Shown here piece by piece: positions 717 through 12,650 of a stretch of DNA of 38,485 nucleotides. The stretch is from a phage. Location: NCBI GenBank assembly GCA_016969615.1, contig GCA_016969615.1_4548.1; one strand, written 5' to 3'. The notes below the pieces were generated by a model. It did not search any database, had not been told where the DNA came from, and was given only the letters and a program-made list of their open reading frames with translations. Every line of letters starts with the position of its first letter. Position 1 is the first letter of the stretch. Both the position numbers and the translations under genes were made by a program.

Positions 717-3700
717 TCCTTGATGTGGATACCTTGCTCCTCAAACGTTCCAAGCAACAGCTTCTGGGTAATTGGGTCGTTCGGAACCAGTTCACGGAAC
801 GTATTATACATCCCGGTCATGTAGTCACGCTCGTTGACACGAGTATCGGCCTTGAGGTAGCCAGCCAAGTTGTAAGCCGAAGCGCCAACGTTAGCAGCAT
901 ATCCGAAAGCTGGAACCTGCTCCAAGAAGTTACCAACAATATTCATCACAGGGTCACTTGTAGCTGCACCATACGCGATGGCACGTTCAGTCTTCTCTGT
1001 AGACGAACGAGGTAGGATAGACGAACGGAGCATCTTAGTGTCCTCGTACCCAGCGATACCACCAAGAATGTTAGCTACCCCAAGTGGTCCACCGAGATGT
1101 GAACTACGGGACAGAGCCGCATAACCAATCATCGTCGGGTCCAGAGCTTGCTTGAGGTAGTCACGGTCACGACCATCCTGCATAGCGTAAGCCTTGATGT
1201 GTGCCTGAGCCATGTAGTAGATACCAGCAAGACCCATAGACATCACAGTGGACAGTGCAGCGTCAATCGCTCTGTTGTTCTTCGTGGCGTTATAGAAGGT
1301 TCGCATGGTTCTCCCATTGATGGACTTGATGACGAAGTTCTTAAACTGAAGGACAGTCTTAGCCAGAGGGCCATAAGCCTTGGCGTCCATGTTACTCAGC
1401 TTGTGTGGACGAAGCAATGTCTCGTCAGCGATGGTGTCGCCCATACGCCACAGGTCCATAGCCCTTGGGTCCTGACTAAACGCCTTCTTATCCTTGATCG
1501 TGTACTTCCCGTCTGGACCACGCGTCACTGACTCACGGATGAGGGACTTAATGCCCTTCCACTGCTCGTCAGAGATACCAGCGGTCTTCAGCCATCGGTC
1601 ATCGAACTTACGCTTACTACCAGTCAGGCTATGCTCCACGATGTCAGATAGGAAGCCTTGACGTCCAGCATCTAACAGGTAGTTGGTCGTACCGTTTAGG
1701 ACTTTAGTGAACGGAGAGCGTACGGCAAGTTCACCAGTGTAATACTTGGCAGTCCCCAGAGCTGTAGCTGCACCACGACCGAGGTCACTGTAAGACCGCA
1801 GACGGTCGATGACATCCTGTTTAGACGGACGGATTGAGTCATCCAATTCTTTACCGAAGAGAACACTATGCAGGTCCTTAATCTCTGAGGCCCCTACCTT
1901 CTTGTTACGGAAGGCTAGGTCACGGAACATCGGGACTCCATGCAGCAGCGCACGAACGTTGCCACGAGCCAGCATGCCTCCAATCTCCGTTAAGTTCTGA
2001 ACACCCATGTAGGCATTCTTAGCGAAGAACGATAGGTCTGTCATTGTGCGCATCACGGTAGCGAAGGCTGCATCATCAGCACCATCACGTCGAGCACGAC
2101 CAGTTAGAATCTTCAAGGTGTCACGTAAGGTAGATACCTCACCTTTCAATTTACCGTCATCCCCAGCCTTGTTCATCATGGTCTCAACCAAGTCCTTCAT
2201 GTCCTTCGTGGTTTTGCCTGTACCAGCCATGATAGCAATATCGCCATTAACTCGACGGTTGTAGGCCGGGACAATCTTGTCCATGTCCCACTCACGCAGG
2301 TTGTTGACACTGAAGGTCTGACCGTTAGGAAGGACGATTGACATATCGCTATCGAACAGGTTACGAGCCTCAAGGAAGCTGTTGTTCTCCAGACCAACCA
2401 GACCGTTGATGTTCTCTTCCATTACGGATGAACGTTCGAACTGCTCGGTGTGAGAGATACCGTAAGCCTTATCGTTGGCGTACTTATCGACCGCAGCAGA
2501 AAGTCCCTCTGGAGTCAACGTAGGGTCAGCCTCTAAGAGTGCCTCGTCCACGCGTTTCTTGACTTCAGGTCGAGACGCATAGCTGGTCAACCATGACTTC
2601 TTGATGGCCTCCTGCAACGCCTCTGGACTCCCAAGCTCCTTGATGTACAGCTCCTTCATCTGTTTGCTATACACATGAGGGACGTAGGTCCCCTTGAATC
2701 GGCTACCCGGAAAGATAGACTGAGCGTCTGGACGACCAAACATAGCTGGGTTCTCCATCATCTCACGCTTGGCGTCAAACTGGTTCTTCAGTAGGTCATA
2801 GACTTTCAGCTCTCCCGGAGTCAGTTCAGCCTTCAGGTTCCCACTACCATCTTCGATAGCCATGGACACACGCTGGTAGATGTCCTGACGGAATGCACCA
2901 GAGTCTCGCCAGAATGCTGTCTGGAAGTACGGGTCCTTTAGTGCCTCAGTAACCGCATCGTCGATGTCGTTGTAGAACCGATGGTCCACAGCACGAAGTC
3001 TCTCGAACACGTCTGACGCAGTTGTCCCGATTTTACCTGAGGCCCCAGACTGCATACCAGTTGGTGAACGCACTAAGTCAGCAGCTACTCCACGAATCTC
3101 AGGGTTCTCAGACCGAAGCAGCTTCAGACCAATCTCGGTAAGTCCGCCAAGGTTCACGCCAGCAGCTGCACGTTCCGGCTCAATCACTTCGTCAAAGACT
3201 TGACGTGTCTTAGGGTTCAGAGGGTTCTCACCAATCAGGATTGAACCATCTTCCAGTCGTACACTACCCGGCTCGTTCGGAACGTCAGCGAACTTAACAC
3301 CTTGATGACTAAAGGTCTGCTCACCTTCCTGAATAGGTAGACGAGACAGGTCCTGACCGTCAACATTACGTGCAGTCTCACGGGCTTCCAGACGTGTGGC
3401 TGGACCAGCAAACTCATTAGTGTTGCGGCCCAAGGCTCTTCCTAGTCCATCAGCGATAGCAGTCATACCACCACCGAATAGAGCGCCACCAAGGATAGCT
3501 TCAGCCACATGAGCATCACCACCAGCCACTGAGGTACGGGCCATCTCAGACACACCAGCCAGTGCTCCGGATTGAGCCGCCACGGTGAACATCTTGTTTA
3601 CCAGTTTACCTCCTTTACCCACCTGTCCAGCAATCGGAACGTATGTCAGAGGGTCAACGCCAGCGCCAATAACACCAGCAGCCAACTGAGCACCAGTCCC

Positions 3701-7947: not shown

Positions 7948-7980
7948 AAAGTCTCCTTATAACCTTAAGGGCCTATAGTC

Positions 7981-7998
7981 CCTATAGTGATAGTTAAG
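7981..7998 (-). promoter_or_regulatory. Phage RNA polymerase promoter core upstream of gene 13
   Basis: minus CTTAACTATCACTATAGGG; sits inside a 12-bp perfect inverted repeat (7967..7978 / 8005..8016). Confidence 0.8.
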
Positions 7999-8023
7999 GT
8001 AAATCTATAGGCCCTTCAATAAG

Positions 8024-10381
8024 TTAGACGGAACTAGCTTTCTTAGCGTATGACGCCTCCCAGCCACAGCCAACGATGGACACTGGGGTAGGATAATCTG
8101 ACTCTAAGGTTAGACTCGTGGTTAATGCGTTACCATTCATAGCGAAGCGATACTGACCGTCCCCAATGTTGGTAGTACCGATGGTTTGCTGGCCAAGGGT
8201 GTACCCGTTGAAGGTGTTCACGAACTCCCTCTCACCGTTTCTGACAATGAGTCTAAGAGCGCCAGTGTCCTTGTAGTTTACCCAAGCACGACGAAGCTGT
8301 AGACGACCAGTGTCTTCAGACTGAGTTCCACTATCATCTTCAATCTTAATAAGGAACCGTGAGAACTTGTATGACATCAGGTAAGCCCTTCCAATGAACA
8401 CTGTACGTCCTGACCAATCGCCATTAACGGTAACCACAGTGGAGGTGCCAGTAAGGTCACCAAGGTCTACATAAGCACCCTGACTGTCAATCAGATAGTA
8501 CCGACCGGGAGACGGAGCGTTGCCATCATAAGCAGTGCCAATATCCACCGTAGTCTTATATGTGTCAGCGTTATATGAGCCAATTGGGATAACCATAGAC
8601 ACTTTGGAGTCAACGTGGAGTCTATATGGCTCTAACGGAAAGTCAGTTGCCTCCTTGATGAACTTAAGGTGCTCAAGGTCCACGCCGCCTTGGTGCTGAC
8701 GAACAATGAACATGGTAGAGCCAATCGACGCAGACGCCAGAATCTTATCAGCTTTAGGGAACTCCCAGTGCGACCAAGAGGCTTGAAGCTGTACGCCGTC
8801 CTTAAACAAGAACTTGTAGATGTAGATTCGGTTGTATGCACCTGTAGAGTTGACGCAGATGTAGTTCTCAGTCCCTGTACCTTGAATGTCAAACACCCCG
8901 TTAGGGATATAGGACAGTACGTGGCCAGTGGTATCATCGGCATCCTTCACGTCAGACACATCTGCTACAGCGAAGTATCGCTTAATGCTGGTGAATGACC
9001 CACGAGGTGCTGAGAAGAAGACTGAGCGTCCTACAGCGAACGGTCGGGCATTATCTCCTAAGGCAAACTCTGAGCCTACATCAAGCTGGATAGACTTCGA
9101 GGTAAGGACCCCTGAGCTTGTCATCACGAACTGCACCTCATCTGACCAAAGTAGTAGCTGCTCACTAAACGGAACGGCATACTTAAGGATTGAGATTCTA
9201 GGGTGACTTACAGCTACGTCAATAGGATCATCATCACTCAGTGTCGCCACACTCTTAGGGAAGAACGCAAAGTAGCTTGCTGAACGGCTCATGATTACGT
9301 TCTCGCCTGACAAGAACCCCAGCCTATTCCTGTAGAAGAACACATCGTTAATCGTGGCATCCACGAAGCTAGGCATAGGGTTTGTGTCATCATTACCAGA
9401 GCCACGCTTAGACCAGTCCAGAGTCTTGAACTCAAAGGAGCCGTCAGATTGTCTAACCAGAGCATGTGGCATTGTGGTGTTATCGAACCCAGTGACCACT
9501 CCCGGCTCTACTGTCTCCTTCCATGTCTTAGTGTTGGAGTCATACATCACGTAATATTCATCGGCGCTACTGTTGGTCTCACCTTGAATCTTAATGATGT
9601 AACCATTTGGAGCTGCAAGAGGTAACTTAGAGATTGTTTGCACCGTGTCGAGTACTGGGCTGATTAGCTGGTTAGCGTAGCCATCCTCCGTCTCCACTGA
9701 GTTAATGTCAGTCCCTGAAGGGGCAGTGATTAGCAGGAAGCCAGACCCAAGGTCGAACGTGAAGGTAGGGTAAGCAGCAACAAGAAGGTCTCTCAGAGCT
9801 GCACCGATGGCCTGAGCATCCACCTTAGGTGGGTCATTCTCGGCATCATTACCTGCTGGCAACTTATGCTCTACCTTAACGCCTCCATTGATTCCTACCT
9901 TAAGGGTGCGACCATACTGTCCACCACGCAGGTTGATTAAAGCACGAGCTTTACTATTATAACCAGAGTGTGACTGCTCGCTTCCACCTTTAACGATAAC
10001 CTTACGGTTCACGATGAACGTATAGTCTGCAACGGTAACGACACGGATGTCATCTCGCGGGTTGGACGACTCAACGTAATCTACCGCACCGGAAACTGAG
10101 TACTGATTACCACTCAAGTCAACTACCTGAATGTTGGACCCGTTGAACACGATGAAATACTGCTCCTGCTCATCACGGTTAATCAGGTGGAACTTAGGGT
10201 TGCTCCCAACGTCGATGTTAAGACGTCTCTTGAAGACTGTAGGTGGACGCTTCTGGAGGCCATCACTCTCTGATGACCAGCAGTTTACCTGTTCCTCGCC
10301 TTGGTCCGAGAACCTCAGGATGTCGGGCTGTTGGCTAATACCACCTTTAAGGTTCTTGATTGATTGAGTAATTAGTGGCAT
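8024..10381 (-). CDS. gp12: Tail tubular protein B
   Basis: 785 aa; N-terminus MPLITQSIKNLKGGISQQPDILR and C-terminal LQLRRAWVNYKDTG match T7 gp12. Confidence 0.93.
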   Translation of the reverse strand: MPLITQSIKNLKGGISQQPDILRFSDQGEEQVNCWSSESDGLQKRPPTVFKRRLNIDVGSNPKFHLINRDEQEQYFIVFNGSNIQVVDLSGNQYSVSGAVDYVESSNPRDDIRVVTVADYTFIVNRKVIVKGGSEQSHSGYNSKARALINLRGGQYGRTLKVGINGGVKVEHKLPAGNDAENDPPKVDAQAIGAALRDLLVAAYPTFTFDLGSGFLLITAPSGTDINSVETEDGYANQLISPVLDTVQTISKLPLAAPNGYIIKIQGETNSSADEYYVMYDSNTKTWKETVEPGVVTGFDNTTMPHALVRQSDGSFEFKTLDWSKRGSGNDDTNPMPSFVDATINDVFFYRNRLGFLSGENVIMSRSASYFAFFPKSVATLSDDDPIDVAVSHPRISILKYAVPFSEQLLLWSDEVQFVMTSSGVLTSKSIQLDVGSEFALGDNARPFAVGRSVFFSAPRGSFTSIKRYFAVADVSDVKDADDTTGHVLSYIPNGVFDIQGTGTENYICVNSTGAYNRIYIYKFLFKDGVQLQASWSHWEFPKADKILASASIGSTMFIVRQHQGGVDLEHLKFIKEATDFPLEPYRLHVDSKVSMVIPIGSYNADTYKTTVDIGTAYDGNAPSPGRYYLIDSQGAYVDLGDLTGTSTVVTVNGDWSGRTVFIGRAYLMSYKFSRFLIKIEDDSGTQSEDTGRLQLRRAWVNYKDTGALRLIVRNGEREFVNTFNGYTLGQQTIGTTNIGDGQYRFAMNGNALTTSLTLESDYPTPVSIVGCGWEASYAKKASSV

Positions 10382-10390
10382 AGGCCCTCC

Positions 10391-10618
10391 TTAAATCATA
10401 CTCATTAGGACGTATCCCTCAGCGATGTCGCCAACGTCAGCAATGTGGACAACCTTACGTGCTACCTGTTGTCCAGTATATCCGTTGTCCCACTCGTTCA
10501 GGATAAGCCAGTCGCCAACCTTAAAGTCCCGGTCGTTAAGTCTCAGCTCTGCTGTCTTTAGACCTAGTTGTACTGGACCAAAGTGCTGGCGGTGAATCTT
10601 CAGGTTGTGACTAGCCAT
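10391..10618 (-). CDS. Small ASCH/PUA-like (DUF3850-like) protein
   Basis: 75 aa; pattern HNLKIH..HF..V..GLKTAELRLNDRDFKVGDWLIL.EWD...YTG recalled as the DUF3850/ASCH signature; ATG overlaps gp11 stop (TAATG); no counterpart between genes 11 and 12 in T7. Confidence 0.6.
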   Translation of the reverse strand: MASHNLKIHRQHFGPVQLGLKTAELRLNDRDFKVGDWLILNEWDNGYTGQQVARKVVHIADVGDIAEGYVLMSMI

Positions 10619-11184
10619 TAGTCCCTCCCGATGTCTGACATCATGTTGTATCGACCAGTGTCCATCTCGTACTCCATCACCTGCTGGTAGAGTTCTGCTT
10701 CCTGCTCACGAAGATACAGTTCAGACTCTTGGCTACCGAAGAACTTAGCATTGAACTCACGGCTGGCCTTGGTAACGATGTAGTCCCTGAATACCACAGG
10801 CATCTCAGAGAACGGTTTCATCTCGACAAGCTCTACCGTTATAGGGTCGGTGAAAGTGGTTGACTGAGTGGACAGGTCGTACAGGTATCCACCCATGTTG
10901 CTGTAGTAGCTGGTGGCCCCGGCAGTCATTACACGAAGGTATGACGGCAGGAATCGAATCCTGTTGTCTTGGACGTCAGGTGTCAGGACAGCAGCTTCAT
11001 TAATGTTAAAGTTCCATCCTTTAGCTTGGACCTGACGATTGACACGATGCAGGATACGTTGAGCGTTCGAGACGTCAGCGTTACCTTCGTCAAGCTGTAG
11101 GACTGCTGGTTCACCGATAGCAGCTAACATATCGTTGATGGCATCTAAGTCATCGTTAGCATTCAGTGGAATGTATTGAGCCAT
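10618..11184 (-). CDS. gp11: Tail tubular protein A
   Basis: 188 aa; motifs shared with T7 gp11 (AIGEPAV, RQVQAKGWNFNI, FRDYIVTKASREFNAKFFG, MEYEMD); RBS TAAGGAG. Confidence 0.9.
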   Translation of the reverse strand: MAQYIPLNANDDLDAINDMLAAIGEPAVLQLDEGNADVSNAQRILHRVNRQVQAKGWNFNINEAAVLTPDVQDNRIRFLPSYLRVMTAGATSYYSNMGGYLYDLSTQSTTFTDPITVELVEMKPFSEMPVVFRDYIVTKASREFNAKFFGSQESELYLREQEAELYQQVMEYEMDTGRYNMMSDIGRD

Positions 11185-11300: not shown

Positions 11301-11340
11301 CAAAAAACCCCTCAAGCACCCGAAGGCACCCAAGGGGTTT
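11301..11340 (-). terminator. T-phi-like intrinsic terminator after the capsid gene
   Basis: minus RNA AACCCCUUGGGUGCC-UUCG-GGUGCUUGAGGGGUU followed by UUUUUUG; same place and style as T7 T-phi. Confidence 0.8.
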
Positions 11341-12524: not shown

Positions 12525-12630
12525 ATGATAATTCTCCTATTCAATTGAAATATAAAGTTTATTACTTACTGTACGCCCAATCCGTATGGACTGAAGTAAT
12601 AGGGAAACCTTGAGTCTGTATCTTGGTCTC

Positions 12631-12648
12631 CCTATAGTGATAGTTTAG
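12631..12648 (-). promoter_or_regulatory. Phage RNA polymerase promoter core upstream of gene 10
   Basis: minus CTAAACTATCACTATAGGGAGACC; transcript start can fold GGGAGACC...GGUUUCCC like the T7 phi10 leader. Confidence 0.85.
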
Positions 12649-12650
12649 TC

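Follow-up and report, generated by a model that had tools for sequence, protein, structure and literature searches.

Kayfunaviruses are T7-like phages that serve phage therapy and engineering, among them K1F and phages of Salmonella Typhi and E. coli K1. In T7 itself, genes 11 and 12 have only a 23-nt spacer between them, and were described as adjacent in the initial annotation of the sequence analyzed here. The small gene found between their counterparts in this sequence belongs to DUF3850, one of the larger uncharacterised phage-associated families; our search of the literature on DUF3850, Kayfunavirus, and "gene 11" returned no functional study of the gene and no DUF3850 biochemistry. More is known about other proteins with an ASCH domain. 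YqfB-type proteins hydrolyse ac4C by means of Lys21, Thr24, Arg26, and Glu74 (PMC9599836), and in a 2026 preprint all 19 tested ASCH proteins, of both the GKTR and the GKER type, removed ac4C from tRNA in vitro, with the Lys plus Glu/Thr shown to be essential by mutagenesis (10.64898/2026.02.27.708502). For DUF3850 itself, ParB-CTPase-DUF3850 fusions enriched in prophages have been reported (2025 PNAS paper, PMC12704722).

The DUF3850 gene at the gp11/gp12 junction

The window, that is, the whole stretch of 38,485 nt that was analyzed, is a complete T7-like genome in which every gene lies on the minus strand, and megablast assigns it to Kayfunavirus, within the K1F/EcoDS1 group, with identity up to 97%. 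A 75-codon ORF at 10391..10618 (minus strand, stop codon included) encodes a 75 amino acid product, MASHNLKIHRQHFGPVQLGLKTAELRLNDRDFKVGDWLILNEWDNGYTGQQVARKVVHIADVGDIAEGYVLMSMI. Upstream of it lies gp11 (10618..11184, minus strand), the tail tubular protein A or gatekeeper (phrog_446, E 9.4e-68), and downstream gp12 (8024..10381, minus strand), the tail tubular protein B or nozzle (phrog_457, E 8.9e-283). The ATG of the ORF (10618-10616) and the gp11 TAA (10620-10618) have one base in common, so that the overlap reads TAATG (10616..10620, minus strand), as it also does in L017 and L086-L089; the initial annotation had placed the ORF in this slot with its ATG overlapping the gp11 stop, and the position proved exact. 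The last codons of gp11 (I-G-R-D) contain a Shine-Dalgarno-like GGGAGGG (10623..10629, minus strand) 5 nt 5' of the ATG, and gp12 starts 9 nt past the stop of the ORF, across a spacer that reads GGAGGGCCT (10382..10390, minus strand) and holds the gp12 ribosome-binding site, GGAGG. Two antisense ORFs (10425-10595 and 10445-10561, plus strand) were rejected as unsupported, all genes of this genome being on the minus strand. An Rfam scan of the whole window gave no match at the gathering score, and the region is thus not explained by a known RNA element.

The assignment to the DUF3850/ASCH fold, proposed earlier from the pattern of the sequence, was borne out by HMM searches of Pfam, in which both families scored above their cutoffs: DUF3850 (PF12961) with 70.1 bits against a cutoff of 22.9 (E 1.9e-19; residues 4-73 on profile positions 2-76/77), and ASCH (PF04266, PUA-like clan) with 26.2 bits against 21.2 (E 1.4e-5). 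In addition, PHROG 986, "RNA-binding protein", was matched at E 2.8e-35, and the solved DUF3850 structure 3IUW at E 1.2e-10, which gives the protein the fold of this family. Structure prediction likewise yielded a confident AlphaFold model (66 homologues; mean pLDDT 95.3). The same 75 amino acid protein found no match in NCBIfam, and among the defence and anti-defence families of PADLOC-DB it found only PDC-M07B, at chance level (E 0.0073, 14 bits, 34 residues).

Orthologues with 61-77% amino acid identity are found in this slot on four independent contigs of about 34-40 kb, and their start overlaps in the same way. Pairwise dN/dS of the DUF3850 gene (Nei-Gojobori) is 0.07-0.18, with dS of about 0.9-3.6 in divergent pairs, as compared with 0.06-0.26 overall and 0.11-0.26 in divergent pairs for gp12; the gene is under strong purifying selection, at a level like that of gp12. 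Taken together, the Pfam scores, the same-site orthologues, and the dN/dS values are far beyond chance. A missing ASCH/DUF3850 match and a lack of conservation in relatives, either of which the initial annotation would have counted against its assignment, are both excluded by the HMM scores and the orthologues, and the ORF is a genuine gene, whose product, a member of DUF3850, consists of one minimal ASCH-fold domain.

The comparison of the window with L087 (ERZ13616895 contig) showed a near-identical gp11 (dN 0.002, dS 0.22) beside a DUF3850 gene and a gp12 with saturated dS (2.1 and 1.7), which points to a recombination breakpoint at or near the TAATG junction, the gp11/DUF3850 boundary. Between L017 and L087, the DUF3850 gene and gp12 are decoupled (dN 0.17 vs. 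0.06).

Distribution, site history, and expression in Kayfunavirus

A survey of T7-like genomes, which had been suggested as a check, found the insert conserved at exactly the same site in about 164-181 phage records, or roughly three quarters of sequenced Kayfunavirus members. The EcoDS1 orthologue (YP_002003774), between genes 11 and 12, is labelled "RNA-binding protein", other records use "DUF3850 domain-containing protein", and a 100% identical protein is present in EcoDS1, Klebsiella phage Pkp-1, ST31, KE18, and others. Since the gene is already annotated in GenBank/RefSeq, as in EcoDS1, it is no discovery. The initial annotation had called such a gene unexpected in the structural late operon; this stands insofar as the placement is atypical for the family and differs from T7, but not within Kayfunavirus, where carrying the annotated gene is the majority state. 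The DUF3850 gene is therefore an ordinary, known feature, and what sets it apart is solely where it lies, as compared with the other family members and with T7.

About 55 Kayfunavirus records are without the gene (e.g., K1F, ZG49, Dev2, SH3, and SH4), and three types of junction can be told apart. Type 1 carries the DUF3850 gene (the about 164-181 records above; window 10619-10629). In type 2, gp11 runs directly into gp12 through a TAATG, as in K1F (L090 1911-1968; natural junction GACTAATGCC), ZG49 (L003), and 25 others, 27 records in all. In type 3, an 11-nt spacer separates the two genes (GGAGGTGAT, as read in ESh23, L005); its 28 records include Dev2, SH3, SH4 (L175), SH5, and ESh23. T7, T3-like, and Klebsiella and Pseudomonas T7-like phages showed DNA similarity in gp12, with the insert missing. 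The SD-like codons at the end of gp11 (GGGAGGGAC) are found in all DUF3850-carrying genomes and also in K1F and ZG49, whereas gp11 of ESh23 ends in GGTCGAGAC (GGTCGAG), without the SD-like run; the pre-gp12 spacer of ESh23 (GGAGGTGATATG) survives downstream of the DUF3850 gene in L017 and L087. With SD-like codons found in both type 1 and type 2 but not in ESh23, the type-3 junction whose sequence was read, and with the spacer of that junction kept after DUF3850, this pattern suggests a precise deletion in K1F. The simplest reading of these junctions is that a Dev2-like ancestor received the gene at its gp11 stop and that a precise secondary loss followed in the K1F and ZG49 lineages.

Given that about 55 relatives do without it, the gene is dispensable and no core part of the tail, i.e., a dispensable accessory ("moron-like") gene of one lineage. 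Compared with the window, ZG49, which is without the gene, has a gp11 that is 99.5% identical and a gp12 that is 94.9% identical over the first 233 residues; for ESh23, also without the gene, the values are 96% for gp11 and only 71% for gp12. Natural isolates with and without the gene, and with very similar gp11 and gp12, provide a ready-made genetic test.

Two further records show additional changes at this site. KM02 (L002, PQ179042) has an extra gene for a 146 amino acid EndoVII-type HNH endonuclease between DUF3850 and gp12 (2740-3180). LI10P1 (L004, OZ035801) encodes, at ~699-850, a 50 amino acid chimera, MASHN followed by HETGEVRGLLCRHCN, in which DUF3850 codons 1-5 are joined to the C-terminal part of the endonuclease; the deletion runs between two copies of the microhomology CACAACC, one within codons 4-6 of DUF3850 and the other within the D-H-N-H codons of the endonuclease. 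Judged by these two phages, the gp11/gp12 junction is a hotspot. We also observed Kayfunavirus genomes deposited under unrelated hosts: MT350292 (Enterococcus phage EFA-1), PV615262 (Acinetobacter phage vB_Aba_01KA), OM256482 (Providencia phage EPr2), and PV485104 (Klebsiella phage Pkp-1). All four are 94-100% identical to the window in the DUF3850 region, one of the listed hosts is Gram-positive, and the records are probably mislabelled or derive from contaminant isolates.

Regarding expression, the nearest upstream phage RNA-polymerase promoter is of the phi10 type (12627..12649, minus strand) and the next one after gp12 is phi13 (7977..7999, minus strand), both identified with the EcoDS1 promoter consensus; the scan for phage promoters gave no match between 7999 and 12627. 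An own promoter for the DUF3850 gene was considered and rejected, as the sigma-70 scan stayed at background level and no phage promoter matched nearby. A T-phi-like terminator hairpin lies in the interval between genes 10 and 11 (11309..11326, minus strand), in agreement with the annotated phiTE of EcoDS1. With this hairpin before gene 11 and no promoter between phi10 and phi13, genes 11, DUF3850, and 12 would be transcribed by read-through, and the TAATG overlap with its embedded SD would couple translation to gp11. We infer from these signals late expression on a read-through transcript of the order 10-[T-phi]-11-DUF3850-12, coupled to gp11.

The DUF3850 family in other phages and in bacteria

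To place the gene among its relatives, we ran a profile search against 1.84 billion cluster representatives, which returned 18,611 proteins at E <= 1e-3, each of these roughly 18,600 DUF3850 representatives standing for a cluster at 50% identity. Members occur in T7-like, lambdoid, P2-like, and T1-like phages and in Enterococcus, Listeria, Gordonia, and cyanobacterial phages. On 68 viral contigs outside Kayfunavirus, no homologue of gp11 or gp12 was found within 3 kb. The neighbourhoods were sampled with up to two neighbours per side in 66 viral loci (proteins of at least 80 amino acids) and one per side in 79 bacterial loci (at least 70 amino acids). Viral neighbours include primase/helicase, P2 GPA, DNA methyltransferases, NinB/NinG, Lar, Mu Gam, and HNH endonucleases, and bacterial neighbours are prophage replication genes, namely those for SSB, RNase T-like exonuclease, YopX, and NinB. 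A conserved operon partner was sought in these 66 viral and 79 bacterial loci, which share a diffuse replication, recombination, and methylase context and no single partner.

Domain fusions were also considered as a guide to function and set aside as uninformative, being mostly to DUF551: among the 108 closest multi-domain representatives, 14 carry DUF551, two Lar, one a dATP/dGTP pyrophosphohydrolase, and one a LexA DNA-binding domain. In a viral contig, L031 (IMGVR_UViG_3300010261_000168), a single ORF at 2530-3228 joins a Dam N6-adenine methyltransferase (PF05869, E 1.8e-35) to a C-terminal DUF3850 domain (E 5.4e-28).

Lambdoid nin regions hold the homologues nearest to the gene from beyond Kayfunavirus, with about 59-64% identity. 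One of them (L173 4001-4270) adjoins NinB/NinX/NinG/Q in such a region, and another (L174 4001-4246) follows genes for a RecA-dependent nuclease and RusA, with DUF551 nearby. Most likely, the Kayfunavirus gene came from the gene pool that enterobacterial temperate phages have in their nin/replication region, and its insertion hit the gp11 stop exactly.

In Bacillales, a family member is the last gene of a conserved, chromosomal four-gene operon, seen in Priestia endophytica (L107 1035-3231), Paenibacillus massiliensis (L114 918-3234), and Bacillus pseudomycoides (L139 1035-3234). In order, the operon encodes a protein of 348-390 amino acids, an ASCH protein of 128-132 amino acids, an AAA_17 adenylate/(d)CMP-kinase-like protein of 173-181 amino acids, and a DUF3850 protein of 81-83 amino acids. 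The first of these proteins matched nothing in Pfam or NCBIfam, and in the PDB only the non-significant 3EO4 (E 0.17). With its ASCH, AAA_17, and DUF3850 proteins, the operon resembles the (PIN)-GNAT-EVE/ASCH/AAA_17 systems described by Bell et al. (PMC7641849).

Putative function and comparison with ASCH systems

The ASCH octapeptide GxKxxExR ("GKER") is present in the window protein as G19-L-K21-T-A-E24-L-R26. Across 66 homologues K21, E24, and R26 are 100% conserved and G19 95%; the family-invariant set H4, K7, K21, E24, R26, D29, R30, D36, E42, H58, and S73, conserved at 92-100% in these homologues, is complete in the window protein, and N28 and Y47 are further conserved polar positions beside H4, K7, D29, R30, D36, E42, H58, and S73. 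In the 108 multi-domain representatives, H, K, K, R, D, R, G, and D are invariant. For a protein of 75 residues, its dozen invariant polar ones are more reminiscent of a specific pocket or an active site than of a surface for generic RNA binding. The protein has a pI of 6.4 (family median 5.9; 80% of homologues below 7), and this slightly acidic character speaks against a basic protein that binds nucleic acids generically, and is in keeping with an enzyme or a pocket reader.

By analogy with characterised ASCH proteins, we consider that the gene may encode a soluble protein that erases or reads a modified base by means of a Lys/Glu dyad, a reading to which we give a probability of about 0.45. 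The product would be a soluble, slightly acidic, non-structural protein made late, in which a cleft around the GKER octapeptide (K21, E24, and R26), together with H4, K7, N28-D29-R30, D36, E42, H58, and S73, could take up a flipped-out modified base or nucleotide. The Lys/Glu dyad might then hydrolyse the N4-acyl group off cytidine, as an ac4C "eraser"; ac4C or N4-acyl-cytidine hydrolysis would be the most concrete option within this class. The substrate could be host tRNA, another nucleic acid, or a free nucleoside, and the gain for the phage could lie in host takeover, in nucleotide salvage or sanitation, or in counter-defence. Ligand, catalysis, and biological role are here all transferred by analogy, and the earlier statement that the fold binds RNA or modified nucleotides would likewise apply at the level of the family. 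Should a modified-base eraser or reader acting against the host be confirmed, it would extend the known phage activities in takeover or counter-defence by a new class and would give the ASCH deacetylase story a biological context.

Several observations weigh against the eraser model. The 19 assayed ASCH proteins included no member of the DUF3850 family, and an earlier study, cited in the same preprint as ref. 40, found the Glu-type ASCH proteins ZmASCH, TRIP4, and EOLA1 inactive on free ac4C. The invariants that are DUF3850's own (H4, K7, D29, R30, D36, E42, H58, and S73) suggest a substrate unlike those of other ASCH families. In bacteria, the tRNA ac4C site that the preprint assayed is ac4C34 of tRNA-Met, the loss of which offers a lytic phage no obvious benefit; late timing is odd for a takeover or anti-defence factor, and the Dam and ParB fusions (L031; PMC12704722) point toward DNA rather than tRNA.

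It is this last point that favours the main rival, a non-catalytic reader of a modified DNA base, N6-methyladenine or another methylated base. By binding host DNA that is methylated, or the products of its breakdown, such a reader would tell host and phage DNA apart or modulate nucleases or defence. Besides the single Dam-DUF3850 contig and the prophage-enriched ParB-CTPase fusions, DNA methyltransferases occur among the family's neighbours, Iyer et al. predicted from methyltransferase fusions that ASCH domains discriminate m6A (PMC4738411), and the window genome is depleted in Dam and Dcm sites (GATC 13 vs. 149 expected; CCWGG 5 vs. 75 expected), so that such a reader would meet mainly host DNA. 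GAATTC is also missing from the window genome (0 vs. 9 expected), host methylation and restriction sites being strongly avoided. We nevertheless regard a methyl reader as doubtful: no experiment has demonstrated m6A reading by an ASCH domain, according to PMC11037411, methyltransferases make up only 3/137 and 1/106 of the neighbours with no conserved partner, the window phage encodes no methyltransferase, the conserved pocket is polar or charged (K, E, R, D, H, and S) with no aromatic cage, and in ASCH enzymes this invariant Lys/Glu pair serves as the catalytic dyad. A protein that binds RNA generically or regulates the translation of the late operon, for instance one that tunes the gp11/gp12 ratio or binds host RNA, would agree with the PHROG 986 match, with the position between two genes whose products have a fixed stoichiometry, and with the historical association of the PUA/ASCH superfamily with RNA (Iyer 2006, as cited by Bell et al.). 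The PHROG/RefSeq label is, however, a transferred prediction, the pI is slightly acidic, no RNA binding was seen for YqfB-type ASCH proteins (PMC9599836), relatives without the gene make normal tails, and in all other phages examined the family is never beside tail genes, which makes this role quite unlikely. About as improbable is a counter-defence protein that, as an eraser or a decoy, reverses base acylation by host GNAT-type toxins or binds or destroys modified nucleotides. In its favour, ASCH proteins are deacetylases (10.64898/2026.02.27.708502), ASCH genes accompany (PIN)-GNAT-EVE and AAA_17 operons (PMC7641849), the Bacillales operon combines ASCH, AAA_17 NMP-kinase-like, and DUF3850 proteins, some proteins of the family carry a fused anti-restriction protein, Lar, and the gene is patchy and accessory in phages. 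In a variant that is conceivable by analogy, modified nucleotides from degraded host nucleic acids would be the alarm signals, as for the PUA-domain defence system PUA-Cal-HAD, which senses m6-dAMP from phage-induced DNA breakdown.

The presence/absence polymorphism at the site, the EndoVII-type HNH gene directly downstream in KM02, and the deletion remnant of both genes in LI10P1 could suggest that the gene is selfish or neutral passenger DNA, such as cargo of a neighbouring homing endonuclease. This is very hard to reconcile with strong purifying selection at dS above 1, with an intact ORF in about 170 records and an invariant active-site motif, and with an endonuclease found, among the examined records, only in KM02 and as the LI10P1 remnant. 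Just as remote is a virion or tail-assembly component (a chaperone or minor tail protein) of this gp12 lineage, a reading that we rejected on distribution. The roughly 55 Kayfunavirus records without the gene include ZG49 with its near-identical gp11 and gp12, T7 is also without it, the overwhelming majority of the family belongs to replication/nin modules, in siphoviruses, P2-like phages, and prophages, or to bacterial operons, and the DUF3850 type does not follow the gp12 type (L017 vs. L087, dN 0.17 vs. 0.06). Nor does the protein qualify as a T7-group virion protein. The only virion proteomics paper found in the literature concerns the Citrobacter phages SH1, SH3, and SH4, which are without the gene.

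Returning to a modified-base eraser or reader, the comparison with described proteins sets the window protein within the PUA-like clan as follows. YTH, EVE, and SRA readers were rejected as models, as no aromatic cage is evident, there is no match at the sequence level, and the pocket is polar or charged. The YqfB-type (GKTR) ac4C amidohydrolase (E. coli YqfB, PDB 9KYF/1TE7) was likewise rejected, and the difference also counts against the eraser model: in the profile alignment, which covers only residues 7-52, K21, E24, and R26 fall on K21, T24, and R26, so that a Glu takes the place of Thr24, and the Glu74 segment is missing, the phage protein ending at residue 75. Closer in motif are the GKER-type ASCH proteins (TthASCH 2DP9, EOLA1, and the TRIP4 ASCH domain), reported in the 2026 preprint to erase ac4C from tRNA, which share the G-x-K-x-x-E-x-R and the Lys/Glu dyad but belong to other subfamilies and are larger (121-160 amino acids) than the 75 amino acid phage protein. 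In the Tth protein, Tyr14 and Tyr81 position the nucleoside; F13 (87%), Y47 (92%), and Y69 (84%), conserved in the DUF3850 family alignment, would be candidate counterparts.

Within the family, no structural difference was seen from the Pfam DUF3850 prototype, PDB 3IUW ("activating signal cointegrator" NP_814290, Enterococcus faecalis), a structural-genomics entry without an assigned function, so that membership in DUF3850 gives no mechanism. The DUF3850 genes in the nin/replication regions of lambdoid and other temperate enterobacterial phages are 55-65% identical to the window gene's product, have the same motifs, and encode stand-alone proteins of 76-90 amino acids, but lie between replication genes and NinB/NinG/Q and are early or delayed-early, in contrast to the window gene in its late structural operon. 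The closest described likeness is the EcoDS1 orthologue, which together with about 170 records shares the same position and the same TAATG, and the window gene is one of them.
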